Shown: positions 6,945-58,233, numbered from the stretch's first letter. The stretch: DNA of 64,000 bases from an uncultured Candidatus Saccharibacteria bacterium (GCA_964547425.1 CAZJNH010000002.1:1028-65027); one strand, 5' to 3'. Numbers and translations are program-made. The notes: generated by a model from the sequence alone, not told the origin.

Positions 6945-8030
6945 TTGGTGCTCGTGGCGATTCTAACCTTCACTCTTGCCACGTACGGACTAGGAACTGG
7001 AAAAATCCCGATTACCCGAACCGCTTTGGCCGACGCCCAGCGGGTAGTTAGCTTGTACGTCGACGGCCAAAAGCGAATCATCCCGACCGATGCCCAAACC
7101 GTCGGCGACCTATTAAACCGCAGCCACGTTACCTTAGGACCCGGCGACATCGTCGAACCGGATATTTCAACGCCAATTCCTGAAGGCGCGTTTTACGTCA
7201 ACGTCTACCGTTCTCGGCCGGTGGTGGTAATTGATGGGTCACAAGTAACCCGCGGCTACAGCGCTTACCAAAATCCGAAGCTGATCCTCGGGCAGTTAGG
7301 TATTCAAATTTACCCTGAAGATTTGTTGGCCGTTGCTCCAGTGAACGACTTTGTGAACACCGGCGTCGTCGGTCAGCAGCTGACGATCACCCGCGCCAAG
7401 TTAATTAGGGTCGAAGATTTTGATGGCAACACTAAACAGTTGCGGACGCAAGCCGCCACCGTGGGAGATGTGTTGGCCGGGCTAAACATTAAATTACGGC
7501 CCGGCGATCGAGTTTCGCCTAAGCAGTCCGCTCTGGTTGTTTCTGGAAGCACCATCACTTTATCCAGAGTTAACCAAGAATTAGTCAAGGTTGAAGAGGT
7601 GATTCCTCACGGCGAAGAAGCTATTCGCGACCCGAAGCTTGAGGTGCCGTCTACGGCGGTCGAGCAGGCCGGCAGTGATGGCCAAAAAGTCACCACTTAC
7701 AGGGTGGTTTACCGAAATGGCCAAATTGTCTCCAAAACCCCGATCAAAAGCGAGGTCACGGTCCAGCCGAAACCGCGGATTGTGGCTAAGGGTAGCCTGG
7801 TCACGGCCAACACATGGCTAAAACTGCGAATGTGCGAGTCGAGCAATAATTACGCCGACAAGTACAACCCGAATTACCGCGGCGCTTACCAGTTCTCCTT
7901 TAGCACCTGGGCTTCAGTCGGCGGTTCCGGCGACCCGGCAAATGCTTCACCCAGCGAACAGGACTCCCGTGCCCAAATGCTCTACAACCTCCGTGGTTGG
8001 TCGCCCTGGGTCTGCGCTAACGGCTGGTAG
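6945..8030 (+). CDS. RpfB-like secreted protein: DUF348-type repeats, G5-like region and a C-terminal resuscitation-promoting-factor/transglycosylase-like domain
   Basis: The C-terminal block CESSNNY..YRGAYQFS..W is the Rpf-type lysozyme-like domain; N-terminal signal anchor; the start codon is uncertain (TTG at 6945, with the frame open upstream from 6906). Confidence 0.65.
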   Translation: MVLVAILTFTLATYGLGTGKIPITRTALADAQRVVSLYVDGQKRIIPTDAQTVGDLLNRSHVTLGPGDIVEPDISTPIPEGAFYVNVYRSRPVVVIDGSQVTRGYSAYQNPKLILGQLGIQIYPEDLLAVAPVNDFVNTGVVGQQLTITRAKLIRVEDFDGNTKQLRTQAATVGDVLAGLNIKLRPGDRVSPKQSALVVSGSTITLSRVNQELVKVEEVIPHGEEAIRDPKLEVPSTAVEQAGSDGQKVTTYRVVYRNGQIVSKTPIKSEVTVQPKPRIVAKGSLVTANTWLKLRMCESSNNYADKYNPNYRGAYQFSFSTWASVGGSGDPANASPSEQDSRAQMLYNLRGWSPWVCANGW

Positions 8031-12002: not shown

Positions 12003-12557
12003 ATGCCAAGCAAGAATGTGATTCGAGAATTAGCAGCGGGAGAGTATTATCATGTCTTTAATAGGGGTATAGATAAATCTCTCGTCTTTAAAACGAAGAA
12101 TGATTACGGGGTATTTCTTTATTATCTAGAGTCTTTTCTTTCGGACCCTTCGCGCGTTAGCTCATCGAATCCCTACCGAACCAACTATCAAGGCCGGGTA
12201 AGGCTGGTTTGTTATTGCTTAATGCCTAATCATTATCATCTTTTCGTACAGCAAGTAGATGATAATGGCTTACCTGATTTCATGAGGGCATTGGCTAACG
12301 CCTATACGCAATATTTCAATACTACTTACGACAGGGTTGGCCCAGTATTCCAAGGTCGATATAAGGCAGTCCGCATACAGAACGACCCGCACTTTAAAGG
12401 TATTAGTCGGTATATTCACGAGAATCCCAAAGACTTATGTTCTGACTTCCGGAATTATCCATACTCAAGCTATAAGTTTTTTTCTGATAAAGCGCCGGAT
12501 TGGATTCATTTTGGAGAGCTAAAATTAGGGGTTGAACCCCTAATAAAGGCTTTATGA
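12003..12557 (+). CDS. tnpA: IS200/IS605-family Y1 (HuH) transposase-like protein, REP-associated tyrosine transposase (RAYT)-like
   Basis: HuH motif MPNHYHLFVQ and a catalytic Tyr region (GRYKAV), about 184 aa, flanked by direct copies of a palindromic repeat; its C-terminal residues are encoded by the repeat itself. Confidence 0.8.
   Translation: MPSKNVIRELAAGEYYHVFNRGIDKSLVFKTKNDYGVFLYYLESFLSDPSRVSSSNPYRTNYQGRVRLVCYCLMPNHYHLFVQQVDDNGLPDFMRALANAYTQYFNTTYDRVGPVFQGRYKAVRIQNDPHFKGISRYIHENPKDLCSDFRNYPYSSYKFFSDKAPDWIHFGELKLGVEPLIKAL
12521..12549. repeat. REP-like palindrome (family 1), right flank of the transposase
   Basis: AAAATTAGGGGTTGAACCCCTAATAAAGG; direct repeat of the 11964..11990 element. 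Confidence 0.8.
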
Positions 12558-39908: not shown

Positions 39909-40616
39909 ATGGTGTCAGTTATTATTCCGGCCTATAACGAAGCCGATGACCTACCCAAATGCTTGGACAGTTTAACCAAGCAACTAACCCGGCACCAATT
40001 CGAGGTTGTGGTAGTTGATAATGCATCGACCGATCAAACAAAAGCCGCCGCGATTACTTATAAAGCTAAGCTAAAGCTCAAAGTCATTGAAGAGGCTCGG
40101 ACGGGGCGAGGGGCAGCGAGAGCGGCTGGGTTTGCCGCCTCCGAAGGCCGAATTTTACTATCAACCGACGCTGACACTATCTTGCCACCGAACTGGGTCG
40201 ACTCGTTGGTAGATACGCTCGATTCTCATCCTGACTGGGTGGCGTTAAGTGGAACCTGCCGCATAATCGACCAAAGCTTGCTGGTTAACGGCTTTTTTAA
40301 TTGGTTCCAGCCGTTTTCGATGCGGGTGTTTCGTTTGTTGTTTGGGCATTACTGGCTAACAGGTTCGAATTTTGCTATTCGTAGCGATATTTACAAGAGG
40401 TCAGGTGGTTTCAATCCTAAAATTCCAGACCTCGAAGATCACGACCTTGCTTTCAAGGTAAGAAAACTGGGCAGGATAGGATTTTTGAGGCGACCAGCGG
40501 TCATTACCTCCGGAGAACGTTACCATCAAGGATTATTCCGTGGATTGGGTGAATACGTTCGCGCGTTCAATAGCCGGTTCTTGTTTAAGCGCAAACGGCC
40601 GTATAGCCGGGATTAA
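39909..40616 (+). CDS. family 2 glycosyltransferase
   Basis: N-terminus VSVIIPAYNE and the DxD region (STDADT). Confidence 0.75.
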   Translation: MVSVIIPAYNEADDLPKCLDSLTKQLTRHQFEVVVVDNASTDQTKAAAITYKAKLKLKVIEEARTGRGAARAAGFAASEGRILLSTDADTILPPNWVDSLVDTLDSHPDWVALSGTCRIIDQSLLVNGFFNWFQPFSMRVFRLLFGHYWLTGSNFAIRSDIYKRSGGFNPKIPDLEDHDLAFKVRKLGRIGFLRRPAVITSGERYHQGLFRGLGEYVRAFNSRFLFKRKRPYSRD

Positions 40617-41425
40617 TTGAGAGCTTTATAGATCGCGCTTGAGAGTTTGGCGAAGCTAGAGAAGGAGTTTGCTGGGTTAGTCCACGGGCCGGACAAAACG
40701 ACGATCAGATAATCGGTTTTGGAGCCGTAAACTATGCCGGCGTCGTGCATTAGGCCGCCGAGGTCGCCGGTTTTGTGTGCGATGGTCGTGCCGCCGGGTA
40801 AACCGAGAGGTAGGCGATTATTGACGCGTTGCGCTTTGAGTAAATTGGTCAGGATCTTGGTGCTCGATGGGCTAAGGAGCGTGCCGGCATAAAGTTTCTC
40901 GTAAAATTTTGCCACGTCGCCGGCCGAAGTGTGGAGGTTGTATTTATCGAGCGAGGTCGAACTAAAGCCCAACTGCTCCAGGCGGGCGTTTTGGTTACTC
41001 CATCCCAGTCTTGATCCAAGAGTTTCTCCGCACTGATTGCTCGAGACTGTGATCATCGGGTTTAGGCAGCCAATGACCGAACCAAGCTGGATTTGTCCTT
41101 GGTCGACCCGTTCCAAAATTCCTTGTGCCACGAACAGTTTATAGAGGCTGGCGCTGGTGAATTGCTGGTCGGCGTTGTGTGAAGCCGCGGCACCGGTTTT
41201 AAGATCCTCGATGACGATGCCATAAGAGACTGGTTGGGTGGATAAAAACCCGTCGACCGCCTGCTGTAAATTTTGGCTCTGAGCGGTACTATCCGTGGAA
41301 TCACTGGAGGATAGAGGTTGTACGGCGGCACTCAAACTGCCAATACCAATCAGAACCGTGGCTGCTACAATCGCGCTGGCTGCGACCACAACAAAAATCC
41401 GTGCTCGACCTCGACTCTCTAGCAT
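40613..41425 (-). CDS. class A beta-lactamase-like serine hydrolase with an N-terminal TM anchor
   Basis: SxxK (SLYK), KTG (HKTGDLGG), SDN-like loop; convergent with the GT2 gene and overlapping it by 4 nt. Confidence 0.6.
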   Translation of the reverse strand: MLESRGRARIFVVVAASAIVAATVLIGIGSLSAAVQPLSSSDSTDSTAQSQNLQQAVDGFLSTQPVSYGIVIEDLKTGAAASHNADQQFTSASLYKLFVAQGILERVDQGQIQLGSVIGCLNPMITVSSNQCGETLGSRLGWSNQNARLEQLGFSSTSLDKYNLHTSAGDVAKFYEKLYAGTLLSPSSTKILTNLLKAQRVNNRLPLGLPGGTTIAHKTGDLGGLMHDAGIVYGSKTDYLIVVLSGPWTNPANSFSSFAKLSSAIYKALN

Positions 41426-41519
41426 AAGCGTTATTATACCCCTTGTCCGCCTTCGTTGACATTTTTAACGGTAAGAGTAGAGTATTGTCACTCGAATTCC
41501 TTTGACACAAGGAGAGAAC

Positions 41520-42137
41520 GTGCGACGGGTGTGGGTATCGTTGCTTCTGGCGGCTTGCTTTTCGCTCGTGATTGAGGCTCCGGCGGGCTCGGAATCGGTG
41601 CAAGCTGTGGTTTCGCATCGGATTGTGGTGCCTCGATCTGCCCTGCTGGGGTATTTGCCGCTCCGGCCGCCGGATCCGATCTACAGCCATTTGCCGGCGC
41701 AAAGGGCCGGAAAGATGGTAGTTGTAGATATCTCGGACTTCATGCTCTATGAGCTGGTGGACGGGATTATCGTCAAACGGCTACAAATTTCGACCGGTTT
41801 CGGCGGTCCATTCCGTGAACTTCACCGCCTGCCGGGCGGCCAATACGAATTGGAAACCGGCCACGCCGACACGCACAGAGGGGCGTTTGAGGCGCACCGC
41901 CAAAAAGTCGATGGCTACGACGGGGAGCTGCTGCATATGGGTCCAGGCGGGACCTACACCAGCAAACTCGGAGTGATGAGTTGGCCGGTTTGGTTTTACG
42001 GCACCATCGACGCCATTCACGGCGAGGATGTACCGAACTACAACGCCTCGCATGGATGTGTTCGGATCCCCTGGCAAGAAGCTAAGCCGTTCTACGATTG
42101 GACGCCCGACGGGACGCCGATCGTCGTTCAGCAGTAA
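41520..42137 (+). CDS. L,D-transpeptidase (YkuD domain)
   Basis: Catalytic motif SHGCVRIP; GTG start at 41520 preceded by AAGGAGAG; signal peptide. Confidence 0.7.
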   Translation: MRRVWVSLLLAACFSLVIEAPAGSESVQAVVSHRIVVPRSALLGYLPLRPPDPIYSHLPAQRAGKMVVVDISDFMLYELVDGIIVKRLQISTGFGGPFRELHRLPGGQYELETGHADTHRGAFEAHRQKVDGYDGELLHMGPGGTYTSKLGVMSWPVWFYGTIDAIHGEDVPNYNASHGCVRIPWQEAKPFYDWTPDGTPIVVQQ

Positions 42138-42201
42138 GGTTTTCGAAGTCCCCGGTCAAAAGATGGCCGGGGACTTTAATATTGAGTGCTAGAATTAAAA
42201 C

Positions 42202-42789
<588 letters not shown>

Positions 42790-42806: not shown

Positions 42807-42870
42807 ACATGTATTTTTCTAACCTGTTAAGGGTGTAACCCTTAACAGGTTAGTCGATTACAAGGTTTCC
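42807..42870. repeat. REP-like palindromic element, family 2 (copy B), contains the perfect 16-bp-stem hairpin CTAACCTGTTAAGGGT-GTA-ACCCTTAACAGGTTAG
   Basis: Read directly; the stop codon of the adjacent transposase lies inside the hairpin. Confidence 0.85.
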
Positions 42871-43461
42871 TAGTAACGGTTTAGAGTCTCGGATTAAACC
42901 CTCATGGAAGTCAGAAAACTCCATAGAGCCTGAAAACAGGCTAAGAACATCGATATGCTTCAACCACCGTGGAGCATGTCCTAACACGAAATAACGGTAG
43001 CTTGAATACGGGTATCGCAGGTAGCTCAACCTGATAGTTTGGGGATTTAGATGGATGTAACGGGTCAAGTGCATAATTTGCTCGTCTGATTCTGCGAGAA
43101 CCGCTTTATATGTCCCCTGAAACAAACTCCCGACGCGGTTGTGCCTCGTATTGAAATACATTGCATATTTGGTCCCAATAGATTTCATTAACTTCGTAAT
43201 ACCTTCAGCCGTGTTTTGCCTGACGAGCAAATGAAAATGATTGGGCATCAAGCAATACGCTAAAAGATCGATTTCTTTACTTAGTTCCGGCAAGTTGTCG
43301 GGCCGTTTTTTTTGATCCGGGTCCAAATAAAGTTTCAGATAGCCTAGAAACACTCGATAATCTTGGTCGTCCATGAAGATATCACGTTTTTCAACACCTC
43401 GGTTGTAGATGTGGTAGTACCCGCCCTCTTGATATTGCTTGATAGTATTACGGCTTGGCAT
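42850..43461 (-). CDS. tnpA: IS200/IS605-family Y1 (HuH) transposase-like protein (RAYT-like), second paralog
   Basis: HuH motif MPNHFHLLVRQ, GTYKAV Tyr region; about 55% identical to the 12003..12557 product; flanked by family-2 REP copies B and C. Confidence 0.8.
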   Translation of the reverse strand: MPSRNTIKQYQEGGYYHIYNRGVEKRDIFMDDQDYRVFLGYLKLYLDPDQKKRPDNLPELSKEIDLLAYCLMPNHFHLLVRQNTAEGITKLMKSIGTKYAMYFNTRHNRVGSLFQGTYKAVLAESDEQIMHLTRYIHLNPQTIRLSYLRYPYSSYRYFVLGHAPRWLKHIDVLSLFSGSMEFSDFHEGLIRDSKPLLGNLVID

Positions 43462-47083: not shown

Positions 47084-47641
47084 ATGCTAAAAGAAATTAT
47101 TAATGAAACATCCGAAGCTGTTGTTGCGGCCGTCAAAGGTGTCGACGACATTTTAGGGGCGGTCACCGGCACCGTTAAGCACCAAGTGACCAGCGTACTC
47201 AAAGGCACCGGTGAGGTTTCGGGCAGCGGGATCGACGCGGTGGCTTCGGTTGCCAGCGGTGCGATTCAAGGGGCAGGCAAGGTTGGAGCCTCGTTGACCG
47301 AAGTCGTTAGCGGTACTATGCATGGTGTGGTTGGCGCGGCCAGCCAGGCTGGCAGTGATGTTACTGACGCAGTCCGCGGTGCAGCGACCGGTGTGGTCCA
47401 GGGTACCGCCGAGGTCGGCGGAGATGTTGGCGGCGCTGCCGTTTCGGCGGTTGAAGGCGCGATCAAGGCGGCCGGTGACGTGGGTGCTGATACCGGCGAA
47501 GCCGCTACGGCCGCGGTCGGCGGCGCGATGAAGGCCGCTACTACAGTTGGCGGCGATGCGGCTGGTAAAGTCCGTGAGGCCCTGCTTTCCGCGGCCGCTC
47601 TGCCCCGCGACACTATCGAAGCAGCTCTAAAAGGCAGTTAG
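47084..47641 (+). CDS. Gly/Ala/Val-rich tandem-repeat protein (about 22-aa periodic repeats), no TM or signal
   Basis: RBS AGGAGGG; repeats such as GAIKAAGDVGADTGEAATAAVG and GAMKAATTVGGDAAGKVREA visible at the protein and DNA level. Confidence 0.5.
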   Translation: MLKEIINETSEAVVAAVKGVDDILGAVTGTVKHQVTSVLKGTGEVSGSGIDAVASVASGAIQGAGKVGASLTEVVSGTMHGVVGAASQAGSDVTDAVRGAATGVVQGTAEVGGDVGGAAVSAVEGAIKAAGDVGADTGEAATAAVGGAMKAATTVGGDAAGKVREALLSAAALPRDTIEAALKGS

Positions 47642-47769: not shown

Positions 47770-48010
47770 CTAGAACCGCACGATCAGCCAGTGGGCGACG
47801 TACGCGAGACCCGTGAGGGCCACGACGTTGAACCCGAGGCTGACGAGCTTGCTACTCACCGAGTTGGCGGTGTCGACGGCCTTCTCCGCGAGAGCGGAGC
47901 CGGCGTCGGTCGCCTTGGTGACGAGGTCGGTGCCTGTCCCTACTACTTCATCGATCATCTCGCGACCGGTGTGGAGGACAGCCACTGCAGCGTTTCCGCT
48001 AGCTTCCATG
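47770..48010 (-). CDS. small C-terminally membrane-anchored protein with composition related to the 47084 product
   Basis: Strong RBS AAGGAGGTG then ATG (MEASGNAAV..); 80 aa; C-terminal TM; the longer ORF-track version is an upstream extension. Confidence 0.45.
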
Positions 48011-48183
48011 TGTTTCACCTCCTTTGAGGTGTGAGGATGTAAATCAGAACGGTATAAATCTCTGGATGCCACAACCAAGTCGTTCTAAAGTGCTTACGCT
48101 TAGTTGTTAGCAACCATATTACCATAATAGTTTTGATTTGTCAAGTACTTGTAAGGTCGATTTCTATCTGGAAAAAGACGAAT

Positions 48184-49707: not shown

Positions 49708-49782
49708 TCGGGTGTGGCCAAGCGGTAAGGCGCCTGCCTCTGGAGCAGGAAATCGTAGGTTCGAATCCTACCACCCGAGCCA
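49708..49782 (+). tRNA. tRNA-Gln (anticodon CUG)
   Basis: Acceptor TCGGGTG/CACCCGA, anticodon stem CCTGC/GCAGG with loop CTCTGGA, T-loop TTCGAAT, encoded CCA. Confidence 0.8.
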
Positions 49783-49855
49783 AAGGTTATTATTGTAATC
49801 CCCTGAAGTTGACACGAATTTGTTTCAACACTAGAGTTTAAAAAGGATTATTCTT

Positions 49856-50668
49856 ATGGCAAAAGTCAATTTAGCAAAAAGCAGCAATCTTAATACGATT
49901 TTAAAGTTTGTAGCCTGGATTCTTTTTATTTTTGGCATGGTTGTTATTTTCGGAGTGAGTATTAATCCCGAAACCGCCCCGACCGTACCACCAAGCCCAC
50001 TAGATATTTTCTGGCCAGCGCTATTTATTCTGCTGCCTGTACTGTGGCTAAAAAAACTTAACGGTAATTCAAAAGGTAAGCGCTTCTTATCTTCCGACGG
50101 CGTGATCGTTACCCTCGCGGCGGTGTCGGTGGTATTGTCCGCATGGGGGGCATACCGCGGCGCCCAAAGTTACTTTGTCACCCAAGATGAGCTCATTTCG
50201 CAAAAATTTGCCGCCGTAAATGTTGTGTATCAAAAACGCTTCGACTTAGTTCCAAACGTAGCCGCCAGCGCGAAGGCACTCGCAACCCAAGAAAGAGCCG
50301 TAATAAATAGTATAACCAAAGCCAGATCCTTGTATCTCCGATCCAGAAGCACGAATGCCAAAGTTGGAGCTATTAACGATTTCAATAGAGCCCTTCTTTC
50401 GGTAAACGTGGAAAATTACCCTAACTTAAAAAGCGATGCCGGGTTCTTGAAGTTGATTCAAGTTTTAAGCGATACTGAAAACCAATTGGTGACGGCTCAG
50501 AATGACTATAACCAGCAAGTTACCGCATTGAATAGCCAGTCTAGAACTTTTCCCTACAACTTTCTAGCAAAGCATTTTATAGACCAACCGATCAAAAATC
50601 GTCTTGACCAAACAATCGATTTCCAGACTCAAAATTCTCAAGATCTGTTGAAGATACTTAAAGAATAA
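49856..50668 (+). CDS. LemA family protein with an extended N-terminal membrane region
   Basis: The C-terminal 170 aa match the LemA pattern (YQKRFDLVPNV .. NYPNLKSD..FLKLQ .. TENQL..A.NDYN..V..N). Confidence 0.6.
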   Translation: MAKVNLAKSSNLNTILKFVAWILFIFGMVVIFGVSINPETAPTVPPSPLDIFWPALFILLPVLWLKKLNGNSKGKRFLSSDGVIVTLAAVSVVLSAWGAYRGAQSYFVTQDELISQKFAAVNVVYQKRFDLVPNVAASAKALATQERAVINSITKARSLYLRSRSTNAKVGAINDFNRALLSVNVENYPNLKSDAGFLKLIQVLSDTENQLVTAQNDYNQQVTALNSQSRTFPYNFLAKHFIDQPIKNRLDQTIDFQTQNSQDLLKILKE

Positions 50669-50674
50669 CTGGAA

Positions 50675-51073
50675 TTACTCTTTGCCGGCTAGCATCAAGA
50701 CGATTAGCTTGGTGATACCCCAACCGACGAGGGCGTAGACGATCATACCGATGATCGTAGCCGGTTCGAGTACCGAGGTGGTTTCAACACCTTGCGAGAC
50801 CGTAGTATGAAAAATCCCCAAAAACGGCGCCAAAAGACCGCCGGTAATCGAGTAGATGAAGGACACAAAGCCGCTGTTCGGGTTGGCGCCTAACAGTTTA
50901 AATACCAGCCGAAACGCGAACAGGATTTCCAGGACTCCCAGAATGTAATACACCAGGTAGTAAGCCTGAAAAGTGCCTTTGTTTTCCTGTGATACCGGTG
51001 AACTAGAGGTCTTTTCGGTGACCTTTTCGCCGCCCGGGATCTTCTCTGTTGAAACTTCTTTTTTCTCTTCCAT
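50675..51073 (-). CDS. YggT-like small membrane protein
   Basis: Acidic/Ser-rich N-terminus then TM helices in a YggT-like arrangement. Confidence 0.35.
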   Translation of the reverse strand: MEEKKEVSTEKIPGGEKVTEKTSSSPVSQENKGTFQAYYLVYYILGVLEILFAFRLVFKLLGANPNSGFVSFIYSITGGLLAPFLGIFHTTVSQGVETTSVLEPATIIGMIVYALVGWGITKLIVLMLAGKE

Positions 51074-51180
51074 TTGGTTTTTCTCCGATCGTTTAATTAT
51101 TACCCCAACATATTAAGACAACTCGCCCCAAAATGCTAATGGTTTACCAGTTGTGTATAATCTGGAAAAGGAGACATTCA

Positions 51181-51510
51181 ATGGAAAAGAAAAGTTTTAG
51201 TAATCCCGATGAGTCGATGAATCCGGCTGAAAAAATTAAGAGCGATAAAGTTACAGTTGATGGTAAAGACTTTTATCGGGTTACCGCAGCGCCCGGCTGG
51301 AAATGGTTCGTTGATCTTAAGCCGGTGATGAAGACAGAGAGCTGTCCGATGGATCACTTGCTGTATATGATTTCCGGCAAAATGGCGGTCAAAATGGACG
51401 ATGGCGAAGAATTAGAGTTTGGTCCTGGCGATTTGGCTCACATTCCTGCCGGCCACGACGGCTGGGATATTGCAAACGAACCCACCGTCTGGCTGGAGAT
51501 TCCGCATTAA
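51181..51510 (+). CDS. cupin-domain protein
   Basis: RBS AAGGAG then ATG (MEKKSFS..); small beta-barrel pattern ending GDLAHIPAGHDGWDI. Confidence 0.5.
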   Translation: MEKKSFSNPDESMNPAEKIKSDKVTVDGKDFYRVTAAPGWKWFVDLKPVMKTESCPMDHLLYMISGKMAVKMDDGEELEFGPGDLAHIPAGHDGWDIANEPTVWLEIPH

Positions 51511-52229
51511 TGAGCGAGAAGCAGTGGGATTTTGAGGGGTTGCGAGCCTTATTTATCAACGGGACGCTTAAAAAGTCGCCGGAGGTCTCTAATACCGAAG
51601 GGCTGATCAAGATTAGCCGCGGGATTATGGAAAAGCACGGGGTCAAAACCGAGCTGATCCGGACAATCGACCATGATATTGCCACCGGTGTTTACCCGGA
51701 TATGACGAAACAGGGATGGAAAACCGATGAGTGGCCCCAGATTTATAAAAATAAAGTTATGCCGGCCGACATTTTGGTGCTTTGCGGGCCGATCTGGCTG
51801 GGCGACAACAGTTCACAAACCAAGAAAATTATTGAGCGGTTGTACGCTTGCTCGAGCGAGCTAAACGACCAAGGCCAGTACGCGTTTTATGGCAAGGTTG
51901 GCGGCAGTATTATTACTGGCAACGAAGATGGCATTAAACATTGCACCATGAACACGCTTTATAGTTTGCAGCACATCGGCTACGTCATTCCGCCGCAAGC
52001 AGACGCTGGTTGGGTGGGGGAGGCCGGGCCCGGCCCATCGTATTTGGACAAAGGCTCGGGCGGGCCGGAAAACGACTTTACCAACCGCAACACCACCTTT
52101 ATGACCTGGAATTTGATGCATATGGCCAAACTACTTAAAGACAACGGTGGTATCCCAGCCTACGGCAATCAACGCAGCAAATGGGACGCCGGTGCCCGCT
52201 TCGATTTTGAAAACCCCGAGTACCGATGA
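51510..52229 (+). CDS. flavodoxin-like fold NAD(P)H-dependent FMN reductase/oxidoreductase
   Basis: N-terminal alpha/beta flavodoxin-like pattern (LFINGTLKKSP.., ILVLCGPIWLG); start overlaps the cupin stop. Confidence 0.55.
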   Translation: MSEKQWDFEGLRALFINGTLKKSPEVSNTEGLIKISRGIMEKHGVKTELIRTIDHDIATGVYPDMTKQGWKTDEWPQIYKNKVMPADILVLCGPIWLGDNSSQTKKIIERLYACSSELNDQGQYAFYGKVGGSIITGNEDGIKHCTMNTLYSLQHIGYVIPPQADAGWVGEAGPGPSYLDKGSGGPENDFTNRNTTFMTWNLMHMAKLLKDNGGIPAYGNQRSKWDAGARFDFENPEYR

Positions 52230-52256
52230 CCCGACTGAACTGATACAATCCAGCGT

Positions 52257-53447
52257 ATGCAAATCAAGGCCCGCTATCACGAATTGAGGGTTTTTCTGGC
52301 GCTGAGACCCTTTAATTACTTGGTCGGCAAGGCGCTCAAAATTTTCCCCAAAGCTGCTTACCTACCCGGCGTTGGGTATTGCGTCAATGATCCTGTTCTG
52401 GCCCGGACGATCCTTCAGGACAAGGAGCACTTTAGCTTCAACGATTCTGGCGCCCTGGGAACTTTGATATCTGAGTTATGGGGGACGACGCCAACGATAT
52501 TGAGCATGGAAGGAGAAGAGCACCATCGAGTCAAGTTTTCGCTACTCAAAATGTACGCCAACGACAATCTCTCTAATCTAATTGGCGACCAGCTGGATGG
52601 CTTTGTAGCCGAGCTAAAAAACCAGCTTGATGATACCGACGGAGCCGATCTGGCTAGACTGACGAGAATTTATACCAATAGAATCACAACCAAACTTCTG
52701 ACCGGTAAAGTAGCCCCGACCGACGAAGAACTATTAGAAATAAGCGACTTAGTTACCGAAACTATGGGTTGCGTGGATGTGGCTTACAAAACCTTCACCG
52801 CCGCCAACCGAGCAAAGGCGGTTCGGAATGTAGCGAAATTCAAGCAGATCGCGAAATCCTACGTTGCCAATACAGATCCGAAAGCCGAATGTATTATCAA
52901 CCACCTCAAAGAACTGGGATACGAAGAGGAAAACTGCTATGGGTTTATTTCAATGTTCTTGGTAGCCGGCACCGTTACGGTTTCTGCCGGATTACCCAGG
53001 ATCGCGGCAATGTTAATCGAGACGAATCAAATGCATAAACTTAAGTCTCCCGAAGTAGTTATCGAGGCGATAGACGAGGGGCTAAGGTATGTTACCCCTG
53101 GGCCGGTATTTCTGCACGGGGTAAAGAAAACCACGGCCATTGATGGTTTCGAATTTAAATCAGGCCGCCGAGTACTAATACTTCTGCATAACATCATGCA
53201 TCGCAATAAGTTCAATAAGGATTCAGGGCGTTTTGATATCGAACGTAAGCACAACGAGATTACCTACGGCCTATGGTTCGGGACAGGAATGCATTTTTGC
53301 ATGGGCTCGGTTATTGCTAAAGCCGAAATGGAGGCAATTCTCAGCTCTTTAGCGGCAGAGAAAGGGCAACTGAAGATTGTTCATCGGAAATACCAGCACC
53401 TAGGAATTAACCCGGGCTACACCAGTTTGGTGATCGCTCGGGGCTGA
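52257..53447 (+). CDS. cytochrome P450
   Basis: Heme-ligand loop FGTGMHFCMG, I-helix AGTVT, K-helix ExxR (EGLR); 396 aa. Confidence 0.85.
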   Translation: MQIKARYHELRVFLALRPFNYLVGKALKIFPKAAYLPGVGYCVNDPVLARTILQDKEHFSFNDSGALGTLISELWGTTPTILSMEGEEHHRVKFSLLKMYANDNLSNLIGDQLDGFVAELKNQLDDTDGADLARLTRIYTNRITTKLLTGKVAPTDEELLEISDLVTETMGCVDVAYKTFTAANRAKAVRNVAKFKQIAKSYVANTDPKAECIINHLKELGYEEENCYGFISMFLVAGTVTVSAGLPRIAAMLIETNQMHKLKSPEVVIEAIDEGLRYVTPGPVFLHGVKKTTAIDGFEFKSGRRVLILLHNIMHRNKFNKDSGRFDIERKHNEITYGLWFGTGMHFCMGSVIAKAEMEAILSSLAAEKGQLKIVHRKYQHLGINPGYTSLVIARG

Positions 53448-54161
53448 TTTATGTTCATACGCCATAAAGGCCAGTGAGATCACCCATATCTCGAACGCAG
53501 CCAGCGAAATCCGTTGCAACAGACCGATAAAATGATTTCCGTGAAAACTAATATAGGCAATGGCTGCACTGACAACTACCTGCAATATAAAATGTGATAG
53601 ATGCCATTTGCGCCGGAGACCAGTAGCTGGCATTTTAAACGCTAGTAGCTGAGCCAAAATTAATCCCCCAAAAGTAATTAGACTAGTAACTTGGTGTACG
53701 TATTGGTTGAATCCGAAATTATAGCTATCCAGACTGGCAAGGCAACTTCGCGATAGATAAGGAGAACAGATCATTGGAAAAAACGCGTTTACGGCGGCCG
53801 AGGCGGTACAAACCGCGAGCACTATATGAATGCGTTTTAGTCTTGTTTTCTTCACCTGTAGCCAACAGTAGGCTAGTAGACAAAGCGATCCGAGCAGTTG
53901 CGTTACCCTAAAAAACCAAGCATAAGGTTGTCCGGATACACTCAGCTCACTCACGTAACTATGGGCAATGGATAGCTTGGGGTTGAGGTAAGCGCTAATT
54001 ATCCAGACGCTGTAAAATGCTATGCCTATACCGGCTAACAGTCTAGAAGCCGTTTTTTGGTTCATCAGTCCAGTATAGATGACTCCGCTATAATGGGTCG
54101 CAATGAGCGAAGCGATTGCAGCGAGAGATGCTATGGATCTGCAGAAAATCCTCACCCACAC
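53400..54161 (-). CDS. polytopic membrane protein of unknown function
   Basis: 253 aa, 6-7 TM helices; overlaps the 3' end of the P450 gene on the opposite strand. Confidence 0.4.
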   Translation of the reverse strand: MWVRIFCRSIASLAAIASLIATHYSGVIYTGLMNQKTASRLLAGIGIAFYSVWIISAYLNPKLSIAHSYVSELSVSGQPYAWFFRVTQLLGSLCLLAYCWLQVKKTRLKRIHIVLAVCTASAAVNAFFPMICSPYLSRSCLASLDSYNFGFNQYVHQVTSLITFGGLILAQLLAFKMPATGLRRKWHLSHFILQVVVSAAIAYISFHGNHFIGLLQRISLAAFEIWVISLAFMAYEHKSAPSDHQTGVARVNS

Positions 54162-55098
54162 GGGCGGGTCAACTGAGGACTGGTTTAAGTTTTGGCCGAC
54201 CGGAAAGCTAACCTATTTCAACCAAGACCGTAGTGCCGCCGCCGTATACAAGGTTAAATTTGGGGTTGCAGTTACCGCGGGTGATATCGCTTGTCCGGCC
54301 AACCAGCGAGAAGATTTCCTACGGCGCTACTTTGCTCATTGCCGTAGCAATGGATGGGAACTGGCGTTCCTTAATTCCGAAGCCGAATTCAAAGCACTTT
54401 ACGAGCAGCTTGGGCTGAATGTTTGTTTAATTGGGCACAACGCGATCATTGATGTCAGGAACTTTCTAGACTCAACACAGCATACCGGCCACTTCAAGAC
54501 AATTAGGAATCGAGCTAACAGAAAGCATTGGAGATTTACCCCGTCTCAACCCCCTCATGACCCAGCGTTACTAGAGGAGTTGACGACTCTCGCTAAGAGT
54601 TGGGCTAAAGTACACTGCCATAAAGAAAGGGGATTCCTGAATTCCCCATACTCGGAGGAATACATCCGCCATTCGAAGGTTTTTTGCGTCAGAGACGAGG
54701 AAGGTAAGCTCGGTGCATTCCTAAATGAAATACCTTCATACCGGGATAACGTTGCTACTTTCGATTTAATGCGGCGCGCGCCGTCGGCCCCAAACGGTGT
54801 GATGGACTTTCTAATAATGCGCTATATCGCGGAAGTCCGTGCTAGAGGTTTCGACCAACTCAGTTTAGGATTTAGCCCATTAAACCCAAAGCAGCTTGAG
54901 CTGACCGGTCTACTGGGCGAGGTTACAAAGAAGATAATCAATCTAAAATCCGTCACGCCTTTTGGATCAGGCCTAAGCGCGTATAAGGCCAAGTTCGAGC
55001 CAAACATGGAGCCTCGTTACATTGCATACTCCCGAGGCCGCTGGCCCCAACTCAAGACCCTGCTCGCGGTTCGTGGGGTCATGGGGGACATATCTTAG
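54103..55098 (+). CDS. stand-alone DUF2156 domain protein (the aminoacyl-tRNA-dependent aminoacyl-phosphatidylglycerol synthase catalytic domain of MprF-type enzymes), with no attached membrane domain
   Basis: 331-aa soluble protein that I judge, on overall resemblance, to be similar to the C-terminal lysyl/alanyl-PG synthase domain. Confidence 0.5.
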   Translation: MSEAIAARDAMDLQKILTHTGGSTEDWFKFWPTGKLTYFNQDRSAAAVYKVKFGVAVTAGDIACPANQREDFLRRYFAHCRSNGWELAFLNSEAEFKALYEQLGLNVCLIGHNAIIDVRNFLDSTQHTGHFKTIRNRANRKHWRFTPSQPPHDPALLEELTTLAKSWAKVHCHKERGFLNSPYSEEYIRHSKVFCVRDEEGKLGAFLNEIPSYRDNVATFDLMRRAPSAPNGVMDFLIMRYIAEVRARGFDQLSLGFSPLNPKQLELTGLLGEVTKKIINLKSVTPFGSGLSAYKAKFEPNMEPRYIAYSRGRWPQLKTLLAVRGVMGDIS

Positions 55099-55259
55099 AA
55101 AAAATTCGCTCGCACCTTAATAACCCCGGTTTATTTCTTCGGAAGGTTCTACTGCTCGCGGCAGCTACCTTTGTTCTTGGTCCACTAGTCTATTTCAAGC
55201 AGTACTTCTCCGTTGTCGTTTATGTCTCCTTTTTATTAATCCTCCATATCGCGTTTTTA

Positions 55260-55466
55260 GTGGTTTATATATACAGAGTGAGTTGGCGGCATTTGATGAG
55301 AGACAAAAAAATCTTCGTTGCGAGAGTGATGGCTGTGCTTTTTTTTGGGTACCTGTTAGCGGCGCTGAAGTATCGAAGTAATTTTGTATTGTTTACGGGT
55401 TCATTGCTTGCGGCGATTATCCTTCATACCGGAATTATCCTCGCGCTACACCTGGAGAAGAAATGA
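55260..55466 (+). CDS. small membrane protein; the frame is open and hydrophobic for about 270 nt upstream without a canonical start
   Basis: GTG start at 55260; the same frame upstream from 54987 encodes further TM-like segments. Confidence 0.35.
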   Translation: MVYIYRVSWRHLMRDKKIFVARVMAVLFFGYLLAALKYRSNFVLFTGSLLAAIILHTGIILALHLEKK

Positions 55467-55813
55467 GGGCAGAACAGTTGTACGAATTGACGCTCAAATT
55501 GAAAGCCAAATATCCGGTAAGCACCGTGTTAGCAAAGGAGTTTGGATTGGAGCCGGGTGACGAGGCGGTTCTTGAGGTTGTTGATCTTCAGGATGAAAAG
55601 CACGGCCGTGTCAAAATCAATCTGGCGACCGAGTTCGCGCTCAAAGCCAACCCGCCTTTCGAGTGGAAGCTCGAGATCGACGACTTTCAGGGTGAACACT
55701 ATCTATGGTTGTCAGACGGCCGTTTCGTCCGCGCCGACCGCAAAACCTTCTTCGATGTTTCAAGTGATGAAATCACCAGGATCTCCAATCGCCTTATTTC
55801 CTTCGAGAAATAA
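55463..55813 (+). CDS. protein of unknown function, translationally coupled (ATGA) to the previous ORF
   Basis: 116 aa; no motif recognised. Confidence 0.35.
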   Translation: MRAEQLYELTLKLKAKYPVSTVLAKEFGLEPGDEAVLEVVDLQDEKHGRVKINLATEFALKANPPFEWKLEIDDFQGEHYLWLSDGRFVRADRKTFFDVSSDEITRISNRLISFEK

Positions 55814-55815
55814 GC

Positions 55816-55882
55816 AAACTTGTATTTCTCTAACCTGAAAAGGGTTACACCCTTAACAGATTGGGAAATTACAAGGTTTGGC
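55816..55882. repeat. REP-like palindromic element, family 2 (copy D)
   Basis: AAACTTGTATTTCTCTAACCTGAAAAGGGTTACACCCTTAACAGATTGGGAAATTACAAGGTTTGG. Confidence 0.85.
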
Positions 55883-56001
55883 TTGTCTGTTGCGAAGAGA
55901 TAAAAGTTATGTTATAGTTGGTTCAACTTACTGATGAATACGAGTCTGGTTGTCAATTATTCTCGCGGTTCATCCTAAGAGAATAATTAAACAAGGTATT
56001 C

Positions 56002-57207
56002 ATGAGAAACAATTCATTTTCACGCCCGCGCGGCGGCCGACCGGTCTTCCGCAACTCTACTTCTTCGCGCTATGCCAAGCCTAACCGCAATGGCCAATAC
56101 ATTAACCCCGACCGCTTTATCAACAAAGCCCAGGTTTCAGCCGCAGTGGCCGACTTTGTGCCGCGCCACCGCTTTGCTGATTTTAGCTTTACCGAAGCCT
56201 TAAAACACAACATTACGTCCAAGGGTTACGAAATTCCGACGCCCATCCAAGACGGCGCCATCCCGCCGGTTCTGGCCGGCAAAGACTTAGTTGGCCTGGC
56301 CAACACCGGCACCGGCAAAACCGCCGCCTTTATATTGCCGATCATTAACTATTTACAGGTGCGCCAAGGCCGCGGCACGGCTCTGGTTATCGTCCCCACC
56401 CGCGAATTGGCTACGCAGATTGACGACGAGTTCCGCGCTTTTGCCCGAGGACTCAATCTCTACTCGGCCGTTTGTGTTGGCGGCGCCAGCCTTAATAACC
56501 AGATCAGAGCCTTGAGCCGTAATCCGCAGGTGATTATCGGAACTCCCGGCCGGCTTAAAGACCTGACCCAGCAGGGTAAATTGAAGCTTCATGCTGTCAA
56601 CATTCTGGTGCTCGACGAAGCCGACCGCATGTTTGACATGGGCTTCATCCGCGACATTCGCTTTCTCGTTGACCAACTATCCAAAGAGCGCCAGTCTTTG
56701 TGTTTTTCCGCCACTATGCCCAACGAAATCAAGAATTTAGTCCACAGCGTTTTGGTCGACCCGGTGACGGTCTCGGTCAAAACCGCCGAAACTAGTGAGC
56801 AGGTGGAGCAGGACGTTATTAAAGCCGTTGGCAAAGAGCAAAAAATCGAGATCCTCACCAACTTGCTTCGCCAGCCCGACTTCAATAAAGTCATGGTTTT
56901 TGGCCAAACCAAGTGGGGAGTGCAGAAACTAGCCGACCAACTAGTCAAAAGCGGCATCAAAGCCGAAGCCATTCACGGTAATAAATCCCAGCCGCAGCGC
57001 CAACGCGCGCTAAAGGCCTTCAAAGCCGGGCAGGTTGACGTGTTGGTCGCGACCGACGTGGCCGCGCGAGGCCTCGACATACCCGACGTCTCACACGTCA
57101 TTAACTTCGACCAGCCCAACACCTACGACGACTACATTCACCGCATTGGCCGCACCGGCCGGGCCGGAAAAGTCGGCAAAGCGCTGACCTTCGTTTCGGC
57201 GCGCTAA
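56002..57207 (+). CDS. DEAD-box ATP-dependent RNA helicase
   Basis: Q-motif, GTGKTAAF, DEAD, SAT, HRIGRTGRAG. Confidence 0.9.
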   Translation: MRNNSFSRPRGGRPVFRNSTSSRYAKPNRNGQYINPDRFINKAQVSAAVADFVPRHRFADFSFTEALKHNITSKGYEIPTPIQDGAIPPVLAGKDLVGLANTGTGKTAAFILPIINYLQVRQGRGTALVIVPTRELATQIDDEFRAFARGLNLYSAVCVGGASLNNQIRALSRNPQVIIGTPGRLKDLTQQGKLKLHAVNILVLDEADRMFDMGFIRDIRFLVDQLSKERQSLCFSATMPNEIKNLVHSVLVDPVTVSVKTAETSEQVEQDVIKAVGKEQKIEILTNLLRQPDFNKVMVFGQTKWGVQKLADQLVKSGIKAEAIHGNKSQPQRQRALKAFKAGQVDVLVATDVAARGLDIPDVSHVINFDQPNTYDDYIHRIGRTGRAGKVGKALTFVSAR

Positions 57208-57208
57208 A

Positions 57209-57643
57209 TTATTTTTTAGTCTCGGGCTGGCCGAGAGCGACAGCTTTTAAAATTTCCGGTAGGTCGCTGGCCGAGATTTCAGCTTTGATGATATAGCGGT
57301 CGACACCGTACTCTTTGGCGGTAGCGGCCATTTTGGGATCGGCGACGTTAGTGATAATGATAATTTTTGGCTGGGGCGTTATGGCCTGGTATTTCGGATT
57401 GGTCCGCAGATTTTTTAGCACTTCAATTCCGGGCATCCCGGGAATCATCAGATCAAGCAGGACAAACTCCGGCTTGCTGTCTTCAATGTGGGCCAAGGCG
57501 TCTTTGCCGTTAATTACATTGGTAACATCGAAACCGCCGCTTTTTAGGATAGTCGAGTAAATTTCCTGAATATTCGGATCGTCCTCTACGAGCAGTACAA
57601 CTTTGGGAGCTTCAGCCAACTCAATTTCCTTATTAACAACCAT
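57209..57643 (-). CDS. stand-alone response-regulator receiver (CheY-like) domain protein
   Basis: LLVEDD .. D(L)MIPGM .. K; no output domain and no kinase gene in the window. Confidence 0.7.
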   Translation of the reverse strand: MVVNKEIELAEAPKVVLLVEDDPNIQEIYSTILKSGGFDVTNVINGKDALAHIEDSKPEFVLLDLMIPGMPGIEVLKNLRTNPKYQAITPQPKIIIITNVADPKMAATAKEYGVDRYIIKAEISASDLPEILKAVALGQPETKK

Positions 57644-57660
57644 TATTGTAACTTATAGCT

Positions 57661-58233
57661 ATGCGAAAAATAAATCTGGCGGTTTTGGTGTCGGGAACCG
57701 GCTCCTTGCTGGAGGCGATGATCGAGGATGGACTCGAGATTGCTCTAGTTGCCGCCGACCGGGAGTGTAAAGGGTTGGAAATTGCCAAAAAAGCCGGTAT
57801 TCCTGCCGAATTGGTGCTACGCACGAGTTTCAAAAAAGACTTCGACCGCGAAGCCTATACTCGGCAGATGGTTGAGGTGCTCCAAAAATACGACATCGGC
57901 CTGGTCGCCATGGCTGGGTTTATGACGGTGTTTGCGCAACCGATGTTCGACGCTTTCCCGCATCGGGTACTTAACTCACACCCAGCTCTTTTGCCGAACT
58001 ACAAAGGGGCGCACGCGGTGCGCGACGCGCTGGCGGATGGGGCAAAGGTGACCGGAACGACGATTCATATTGCCAGCCTCGAGGTCGACCACGGCCGGAT
58101 CTTGGCTAAGAAAGAGGTCGAAATTCGTCCGGACGACACCGAGGAAACCCTGCACGAGAGGATCAAGATCGAGGAGCGCAAGCTTTATCCGCAGGCTATC
58201 CGCAAAATTATGGACGAGCTAGGGGCGAAGTAA
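57661..58233 (+). CDS. purN: phosphoribosylglycinamide formyltransferase
   Basis: VLVSGTGSLLEA and NSHPALLP formyltransferase motifs. Confidence 0.85.
   Translation: MRKINLAVLVSGTGSLLEAMIEDGLEIALVAADRECKGLEIAKKAGIPAELVLRTSFKKDFDREAYTRQMVEVLQKYDIGLVAMAGFMTVFAQPMFDAFPHRVLNSHPALLPNYKGAHAVRDALADGAKVTGTTIHIASLEVDHGRILAKKEVEIRPDDTEETLHERIKIEERKLYPQAIRKIMDELGAK

Follow-up and report, generated by a model that had tools for sequence, protein, structure and literature searches.

We analyzed a 64,000-nucleotide stretch of DNA from an uncultured Candidatus Saccharibacteria bacterium (GCA_964547425.1 CAZJNH010000002.1:1028-65027), hereafter called the window, and focused on a cytochrome P450 gene and its neighbors. 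An earlier reading of this DNA (the sequence-only reading) had called five open reading frames (ORFs) between positions 51181 and 55098: a cupin, a flavodoxin-like reductase, the P450, a polytopic membrane protein on the opposite strand, and a free-standing DUF2156 domain. All five ORFs lie where they had been placed, and Pfam agrees with every family assignment. We found that the P450 shares an accessory cassette at 52230..55462, with genes on both strands, with three of its neighbors: a DUF998 membrane protein, the DUF2156 protein, and a small protein with about four transmembrane (TM) segments. The cassette is absent from a sister contig (L082), its G+C content at third codon positions (GC3) is low, and its gene order is repeated on a metagenome contig (L083). 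Within it, the P450 and DUF998 form a pair that recurs in other lineages.

An intact P450 of a new CYP family

The P450 gene (52257..53447, plus strand) encodes a protein of 396 amino acids (aa) that matched the Pfam p450 profile at 1.6e-15, over residues 257-364 only. The heme-ligand loop, WFGTGMHFCMG, occupies residues 340-350 and supplies C348 as the heme ligand. The ERR triad is complete, consisting of the K-helix ExxR motif (E274-x-x-R277) and R330. In an alignment of 16 P450 homologues, C348, G342, G344, H346, G350, E274, R277, R330, and T241 were invariant. An AlphaFold model computed on a 16-sequence alignment had a predicted local distance difference test score (pLDDT) of 89.9 and a predicted template modeling score (pTM) of 0.91. 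When we compared this model by Foldseek with 1,653 P450 chains in the PDB, it could be superposed along its whole length on bacterial P450s of known structure, with TM-scores of 0.75-0.81 over about 390-400 columns. No hydrophobic segment was found at the N-terminus. The invariant residues, the full-length homologues described below, and the end-to-end superposition bear out the earlier call of a P450: the motif is not a chance match. By sequence and model, the product is a complete, intact, soluble P450.

A database search returned 25 relatives of this P450, of which 12 (P0002-P0013) are 42-52% identical to it, most over full length. The best PDB sequence match, 4rm4 (CYP109B1; 1.9e-13), covered the C-terminal half only, and all NCBIfam P450 models scored far below their cut-offs. 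Judged by the usual 40% identity rule, the protein reaches no named CYP family, so we regard it as the member of a new one. It resembles class-I-type soluble P450s (CYP107/CYP109/CYP113 EryK, CYP107H1 BioI, CYP134A1, and CYP125) in size, in fold, in having no membrane anchor, and in its Cys-ligand loop, ExxR/R triad, and I-helix Thr. Unlike them, it has Val in place of the I-helix acid and no nearby ferredoxin/reductase, its conserved neighbor being DUF998; its identity to solved P450s in the structural matches is 16-20% at most. We also tried to read a substrate from the nearest structures (EryK, CYP107, CYP109, BioI, CYP134, and CYP125) and rejected this approach, as they are too distant and their substrates are chemically diverse.

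The I-helix of the window P450 reads AGTVTVS. Thr241 is kept and the acid position holds Val240, so that the acid-alcohol pair of the (A/G)Gx(D/E)T(T/S) motif is incomplete. Val occupies the acid position in all 13 Saccharimonadales-clade members (AGTVT[V/I]S); of 85 wider-family proteins whose I-helix motif could be aligned, 61 have Glu or Asp before the conserved Thr. The Saccharimonadales clade is further marked by FCMG as against FC(L/I/P)G. The I-helix acid is typical of P450s but not obligatory, and some functional P450s lack it. The change from acid to Val may point to altered proton delivery, a peroxide shunt, or another non-canonical mechanism.

The family is rare, in line with the earlier remark that a P450 is unusual in such bacteria. 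Searching 1.84 billion representative proteins with a profile gave 17,528 P450 matches at E <= 1e-3 and only 82 at E <= 1e-30, the latter being our small wider P450 family. Close relatives were present in 2 of 185,579 species-representative genomes. An exact-sequence look-up of the window P450 returned no recorded contig, and literature searches on P450s in Saccharibacteria or the candidate phyla radiation (CPR) found nothing relevant.

The P450 lies in an inserted cassette

Through a relative of the FMN reductase that is at least 90% identical, we reached the sister contig L082 (91,830 bp, from another assembly), which is syntenic with the window from 48.5 to 64 kb. The two share DUF1801, tRNA-Gln, the cupin (81% aa identity), the FMN reductase (FMN_red; 94%), a 115-aa ORF (68%), a DEAD-box helicase (87%), a response regulator, and PurN. 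No counterpart of window 52230-55462 (3.2 kb) is present on this syntenic contig. On L082, the FMN_red stop codon overlaps the start of the 115-aa ORF as ATGA. In the window, an ATGA stands at both ends of the cassette, one closing FMN_red and the other joining the small membrane ORF to a 116-aa ORF; the junctions have only this ATGA in common.

The G+C content of the cassette is 0.473. GC3 is 0.54 for the P450, 0.44 for DUF998, 0.54 for DUF2156, and 0.50 for the 4-TM gene, compared with 0.64 for FMN_red, 0.615 for the 116-aa ORF, and 0.56-0.68 for core genes. Because cassette GC3 falls below that of the flanks and the core, we favor gain in the window lineage over loss in the sister. On these comparisons, 52230-55462 is an inserted, horizontally acquired accessory cassette. 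Promoter and terminator scans gave results at or below shuffle expectation. As to a viral origin, IMG/VR contigs held no relatives of the P450.

The tRNA-Gln(CUG) gene (49708..49782, plus strand) forms the left edge of a variable block of lower G+C content at about 48.5-56 kb. This tRNA gene lies 2.4 kb upstream of the cassette, but we rejected a tRNA-targeted integrative genomic island: neither an integrase nor an att-like direct repeat of the tRNA 3' end was found at the region. The region 3' of tRNA-Gln (49783-55462 versus L082:4912-10723) is hypervariable, with three independent differences in gene content from the sister. Between tRNA-Gln and the cupin, LemA and a 132-aa membrane protein in the window have as their counterparts on L082 an S51 peptidase, Mrr, and others; the cupin and FMN_red adjoin in the window only; and the P450 cassette is present in the window only. 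The "empty" junctions in this region are overlapping stop and start codons. The region beside tRNA-Gln is a mosaic hotspot.

The cupin and FMN reductase are resident genes

Two genes on the plus strand precede the cassette and lie outside it: a small cupin of 109 aa (51181..51510; Pfam Cupin_3 4e-7, Cupin_2 3e-6) and an NAD(P)H-dependent FMN reductase-like flavoprotein of 239 aa (51510..52229; Pfam FMN_red 3e-10; nearest structure PDB 5mji, named a BRAMP domain protein, 4e-39). The sequence-only reading had joined these two with the P450 in a possible self-contained monooxygenase module; such a module would be co-transcribed, with the flavoprotein as dedicated reductase. Flavodoxin-fold FMN proteins are able to reduce some bacterial P450s, the three genes lie on the same strand with no terminator-like site between FMN_red and the P450, and the 64-kb window contains no further candidate for an electron donor. 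The overlapping stops and starts on which the module partly rested are real for the cupin and FMN_red, which overlap by 1 nt, but not for FMN_red and the P450, which are separated by 27 nt.

The sister contig, however, carries both the cupin and FMN_red without a P450, and there the two are not adjacent but separated by 2.1 kb and three other genes. No FMN_red, cupin, ferredoxin, or reductase neighbor was found at the other loci of the P450 family, and no Pfam match to a ferredoxin or ferredoxin reductase in the window or at those loci. The P450 thus fits neither a class I three-component system nor an operon with a dedicated reductase, as no redox-partner gene is co-inherited with it. GC3 likewise splits the proposed unit, grouping FMN_red (0.64) with the core genes and the P450 (0.54) with the insert. 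Since the sister keeps FMN_red and the cupin without the P450, the other P450 loci lack both, and GC3 differs, we conclude that the adjacency was created by the insertion. The module did not survive these comparisons, and we consider it quite unlikely. The neighboring FMN reductase may still serve as an opportunistic, rather than dedicated, electron donor of the P450. The case is a caution against operon-based inference in hypervariable regions, where same-strand neighbors can be an accident of insertion.

DUF998 is the conserved partner of the P450

The DUF998 (DrmA-family) polytopic membrane protein is encoded on the minus strand, convergently with the P450, and its 3' end overlaps that of the P450 by 48 nt. 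The ORF extends to 54161; the start is probably M33, judging from homologue lengths, which gives 221 aa at 53400..54065. The protein matched PF06197 at 9e-22, over profile positions 4-183 of 184. Conserved motifs are YVSEL-V-GQP, FPM-C...S--C, Q--H, and G--QR-SL. Hydropathy analysis revealed four to five clear segments, and a single-sequence AlphaFold2 model was all-helical but poor (pLDDT 53).

We gathered P450 contexts by exact-protein look-ups, a scan of the species-representative genomes, and a metagenome scan, and counted lineages separately when their P450s were less than 80% identical to one another. DUF998 adjoins the P450 in nine lineages: the window, L083, L001, L002, L003/L004, L086-90, L091, L092, and L094-97. 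In seven of these the two genes are divergent, with a gap of 52-88 bp; in the window and L083 they converge, and their 3' ends overlap. Two further P450 loci were truncated and uninformative on DUF998. Identity between pairs of P450s correlates with identity between the matching pairs of DUF998 proteins (r = 0.93), which indicates that the two genes move as a unit. As a control, we searched 146 loci (~2 Mb) around distant P450s from other phyla by tblastn and found no homologue of DUF998, DUF2156, or FMN_red; the sole cupin match was weak (E 1.7e-4) and lay ~6 kb from the P450 in L142.

DUF998 is therefore a conserved, co-diverging partner of this P450 family. The opposite-strand membrane protein, which might have passed for a bystander, is the one neighbor that the P450 keeps across lineages. 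An outgroup P450 (P0016), on a contig of 67% G+C from a Steroidobacteraceae metagenome-assembled genome, has AMP-binding and NAD-reductase neighbors and no DUF998, which indicates that the pairing is clade-specific. The clade entering Saccharimonadales thus gained the partnership with DUF998 as well as the change from acid to Val. The association is previously unreported and was not found in our literature searches.

Other genes near these loci also deserve mention. The P450-DUF998 pairs of three lineages have purN/purM only a few kb away (L002:5493-9185, L004:74-3358, and window 52257-58233); this proximity to purine synthesis genes could mean an old position on the chromosome, or else a hotspot for insertion. 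A similar small membrane protein (...AGRPGW/AGVEGW...IPFY.TY...) is found beside the P450 in L093 (L093:6414-6980, minus strand), a locus without DUF998, and beside DUF998 in L094 (L094:4544-5083, minus strand), and may be a further recurrent neighbor. Mobile-element genes occur near some of the loci, including an rve integrase in L086 (L086:291-1070) and, at L003:10839-14836, TraG-like, reverse transcriptase, and bAvd genes resembling a diversity-generating retroelement.

A free-standing DUF2156 transferase joins the pair

The DUF2156 gene (54133..55098, plus strand) is transcribed divergently from DUF998 and encodes a predicted free-standing aminoacyl-tRNA-dependent transferase equivalent to the C-terminal synthase domain of MprF. 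The protein has 321 aa from the deposited start, M11 (54133), or 331 aa from the ATG at 54103. It matched LPG_synthase_C/DUF2156 at 3e-47, over profile positions 4-298 of 298, and its residues 11-324 align with the Bacillus licheniformis Lys-phosphatidylglycerol synthase domain (4v36; 1.2e-32). The NCBIfam model bifunc_MprF is matched at positions 525-832 of 841 only, with 175 bits against a cut-off of 600. A basic tRNA-binding helix, FKTIRNRANRKHW, aligns with the basic helix of 4v36, and all 20 columns that are invariant in an alignment with 20 relatives (A3) are kept, including DLMR, K285, and K287. The integral-membrane (flippase) domain that forms the N-terminal part of MprF is missing, and we found no transmembrane or other hydrophobic segment in the protein. 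The full-length Pfam match, the alignment with 4v36, and the absence of a TM segment confirm the earlier description of a soluble DUF2156 protein without the MprF flippase.

We detected 35 relatives of this protein. The single close one, P0152 (44% identity), is encoded on L083. The next are 32% identical, have 537-568 aa, and carry an extra N-terminal membrane region of ~240 aa. The context of another short relative, P0159, was uninformative.

Downstream of DUF2156 is a small membrane protein of ~105 aa with ~4 TM segments (55146..55466, plus strand), homologous to a 106-aa protein of L083; its stop codon overlaps the next start (ATGA). The listed start of this ORF is the GTG at 55260, yet the homology reaches upstream of it. 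No in-frame ATG, GTG, or TTG occurs between 55101 and 55260; the gene may start at CTG or ATT or be decaying, or the sequence may contain an error.

The gene order on L083, P450(+), DUF998(-), DUF2156(+), and small membrane protein(+), is that of the window, and the gene downstream differs. This is the one recurrence of the four-gene order. Protein identities to the window are 48% for DUF998, 44% for DUF2156, and 48% for the 4-TM protein, so the arrangement is conserved across substantial divergence. Over its first ~900 nt, L083 matches window 52384-53284 with 100% identity (L083:1-1064 aligns with window 52384-53447). Identity then drops abruptly to about 70-87% in the last 140 nt of the P450, and no nucleotide similarity was detectable beyond. 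Either L083 is a chimeric Logan metagenome contig (SRR9179560), or a recombination breakpoint lies in the 3' end of the P450. Whichever is the cause, a second, divergent P450 3' end followed by DUF998, DUF2156, and the 4-TM gene exists.

We considered whether the grouping is meaningful beyond the P450-DUF998 pair. DUF2156 and the 4-TM gene could be unrelated cargo of a shared integration hotspot, with DUF2156 making aminoacyl-phosphatidylglycerol on its own. The hypervariability of the region by tRNA-Gln, with its three separate indels relative to the sister, fits such a view, as does the presence of DUF2156 beside the P450 in only two of the nine lineages. Soluble domains of aminoacyl-phosphatidylglycerol synthases (aaPGS) are, moreover, reported to be active alone (literature summarized in PMC6103681). 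Against it, both the order and the orientation of the four genes are kept on L083 at 44-48% protein identity and in a different downstream context, the divergent intergenic region between DUF998 and DUF2156 measures 38-88 bp in the window and L083, and an independent experimental link connects DUF998 to an MprF product (PMC13370385). We therefore regard chance grouping as unlikely.

The host is a Saccharimonadales bacterium

The alanyl-tRNA synthetase (AlaRS) of the window is short (600 aa). Its nearest match, from one sister assembly, is 86% identical, and the next matches are 65-67% identical. Source-named proteins among these latter matches are mostly from Candidatus Saccharimonadales/Saccharibacteria/Patescibacteria, with a few bins labeled otherwise. 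This supports the assignment of the host to Saccharimonadales (CPR), and with it the reduced CPR-type genome that the sequence-only reading had supposed. Housekeeping genes in the window include PGK, TIM, PcrA, MetRS, LeuRS, MurF, Obg, FtsA, NusB, RNase III, TrmD, and S16. The window also encodes an Fe/Mn superoxide dismutase and a thioredoxin reductase, which is compatible with exposure of the host to O2.

Among the ORFs scanned in the 64-kb window, we found no genes for heme synthesis, which agrees with the earlier observation, nor for heme uptake, ferredoxin, or flavodoxin; no ferredoxin-type Cys motif occurs in any frame of the window. Soil Saccharibacteria are reported to have bo3-type oxidases without heme synthesis, the heme being presumably scavenged (PMC6031116, PMC8407418). 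A heme enzyme in Saccharibacteria is thus unusual, but precedent exists, and the heme of the window P450 is presumably scavenged as well. Saccharibacteria also have no fatty-acid synthesis, yet carry several lipid-interconversion genes (PMC6031116, PMC8407418).

A lipid-tailoring reading of the cassette

A July 2026 preprint reports that the Enterococcus faecalis DUF998 protein DrmA (EF1797) controls the level of Lys-Glc2-DAG (lysyl-diglucosyl-diacylglycerol), a cationic glycolipid made by MprF, and that loss of DrmA lowers it (PMC13370385). In the authors' models, DrmA hands the glycolipid over to the synthase domain of MprF, or else it flips the product (PMC13370385). They assign DUF998 to the Frag1/DRAM/Sfk1 clan, whose six-helix proteins handle lipids, and mention neither P450s nor free-standing synthases (PMC13370385). 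The window protein is like DrmA in Pfam family, length (about 220 aa), and polytopic character, a likeness drawn from the shared family. DrmA is tied to MprF-type aminoacyl-lipid synthesis, and the window DUF998 stands back to back with an MprF synthase domain. The settings differ in that the window synthase has no flippase domain and that the more conserved partner of DUF998 is the P450.

The DUF2156 protein can be compared with two groups of known enzymes. It is like MprF/aaPGS (4v36, 4v34, and 7duw) in its tandem-GNAT synthase domain over the full length, its basic helix, and its invariant residues, and unlike them in having no N-terminal transmembrane/flippase domain. As a stand-alone soluble DUF2156 protein, it is like ErgS, the fungal ergosteryl-glycine synthase and one example of the known free-standing DUF2156 enzymes aminoacylating lipids (PMC8913301), and Streptomyces VlmA, both of which use aminoacyl-tRNA from a separate synthetase (PMC8913301, PMC6103681). 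This second comparison is by published description; taxa and acceptor substrates differ, and no link of ErgS or VlmA to a P450 or DUF998 is described (PMC8913301, PMC6103681).

Two soluble enzymes are linked to DUF998, and homology marks one of them as a lipid aminoacyl transferase without a membrane domain; DrmA, for its part, is tied to lysyl-lipids made by MprF (PMC13370385). This makes lipid tailoring the most economical reading. We propose that the cassette is an accessory membrane-lipid-tailoring unit, a proposal whose chances of being right or wrong we see as evenly balanced. The core would be a two-gene unit of the soluble P450 and a presumably six-helix DUF998/DrmA-type membrane protein, in which DUF998 would bind, present, or translocate a membrane lipid as the substrate of the cytosolic P450. 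In the window lineage, the flippase-less MprF synthase domain and the small 4-TM protein would have joined this unit. DUF2156 would take an amino acid from aminoacyl-tRNA and attach it to a hydroxyl group of a lipid, and DUF998 could plausibly replace the MprF N-terminal domain in its membrane role, be it substrate delivery or flipping. We infer that a lipid is the substrate, that DUF998 serves both soluble enzymes, and that the transferase is active. The net function would be to tailor membrane lipids that have been scavenged, and through them surface charge or permeability, in an episymbiont without its own fatty-acid synthesis.

Several observations weigh against lipid tailoring by such a unit. 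At loci L005 and L093, the available sequence includes no DUF998. By the positive-inside rule, those DUF998 motifs that are most conserved fall in predicted extracytoplasmic loops, away from the cytosolic enzymes. The DUF2156 link comes from two contexts, one of which (L083) is mosaic or possibly chimeric; most P450-DUF998 pairs have no DUF2156 nearby, and the P450 and the transferase need not share a pathway. A Rosetta-stone fusion was sought in the ~550-aa DUF2156 relatives and rejected, as their N-terminal region is not DUF998 and gave weak LysX-TM-like matches. No substrate can be read from the P450, whose nearest structures are at most 20% identical and act on diverse substrates, and no redox partner for it was identified. 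Finally, the evidence on DrmA comes from one preprint, whose subject is a distant homologue from a Firmicute.

Alternatively, the P450 could oxidize a soluble metabolite in a small-molecule pathway, in the style of valanimycin (VlmH/VlmR/VlmA) or of P450s associated with cyclodipeptide synthases (CDPS), with DUF2156 aminoacylating and the membrane proteins providing export or immunity. A set of oxygenase, flavin reductase, and DUF2156 echoes VlmH/VlmR/VlmA. DUF2156/GNAT aminoacyl-tRNA transferases, including free-standing ones such as VlmA, do act on small molecules (PMC6103681), and the window P450 has a weak NCBIfam match (1.7e-11) to the CDPS-associated subfamily TIGR04538. The score of that match is, however, 43.6 bits against a cut-off of 500, and the cassette has no CDPS, dedicated aminoacyl-tRNA synthetase, nonribosomal peptide synthetase or polyketide synthase, or other tailoring genes. 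For the sub-cut-off score and the missing CDPS, we rejected a CDPS-associated P450 in a cyclodipeptide pathway. The conserved partner DUF998 belongs, furthermore, to a lipid-linked membrane family and not to a transporter family, and the nearest DUF2156 relatives (32% identity) are membrane-anchored and MprF-type. We rate a small-molecule pathway as very unlikely.

The lipid-tailoring reading has a bolder version, a three-step lipid machine: DUF998 would extract or present a host-derived membrane lipid, the acid-less P450 would hydroxylate it, the flippase-less DUF2156 would esterify an amino acid from aminoacyl-tRNA at that hydroxyl, and DUF998 or the 4-TM protein would flip the product outward. 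The P450 step might be peroxide-driven or otherwise non-canonical, with no dedicated reductase needed. We think this version a long shot. If true, the machine would have no described counterpart, would make a P450-dependent aminoacyl-lipid, and would be direct natural evidence for DUF998 as the membrane subunit of split MprF-like systems.

Short of this, the flippase-less synthase back to back with a DrmA homologue looks like a natural "split MprF", as flippase or substrate-delivery models of DrmA would predict, and the cassette offers a compact system of two to four genes for testing these models. The P450 itself represents a family of heme-thiolate monooxygenases that is kept, and so far seen only, in Saccharimonadales, episymbionts that make neither heme nor fatty acids. 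Its presence suggests that scavenged molecules undergo O2-dependent chemistry and that heme is scavenged.

Other features of the window

Elsewhere in the window, two IS200-like Y1 transposase genes (PF01797) lie among housekeeping genes at 12003-12557 (plus strand) and 42850-43461 (minus strand); they may be of the type associated with repetitive extragenic palindromes (REP-associated tyrosine transposases). At 40613-42789, a class A beta-lactamase-like gene (minus strand), a YkuD L,D-transpeptidase, and the Fe/Mn superoxide dismutase stand side by side, a trio of cell-wall and oxidative-stress functions in a CPR genome. A repetitive Gly/Ala/Val-rich protein of 185 aa with no Pfam match is encoded at 47084-47641 (plus strand), next to a 102-aa protein on the other strand (47770-48078, minus). 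The gene at 6945-8030 encodes an RpfB-like protein (DUF348-G5-transglycosylase), an architecture that is mainly Actinobacterial; Actinobacteria are the usual hosts of Saccharibacteria.

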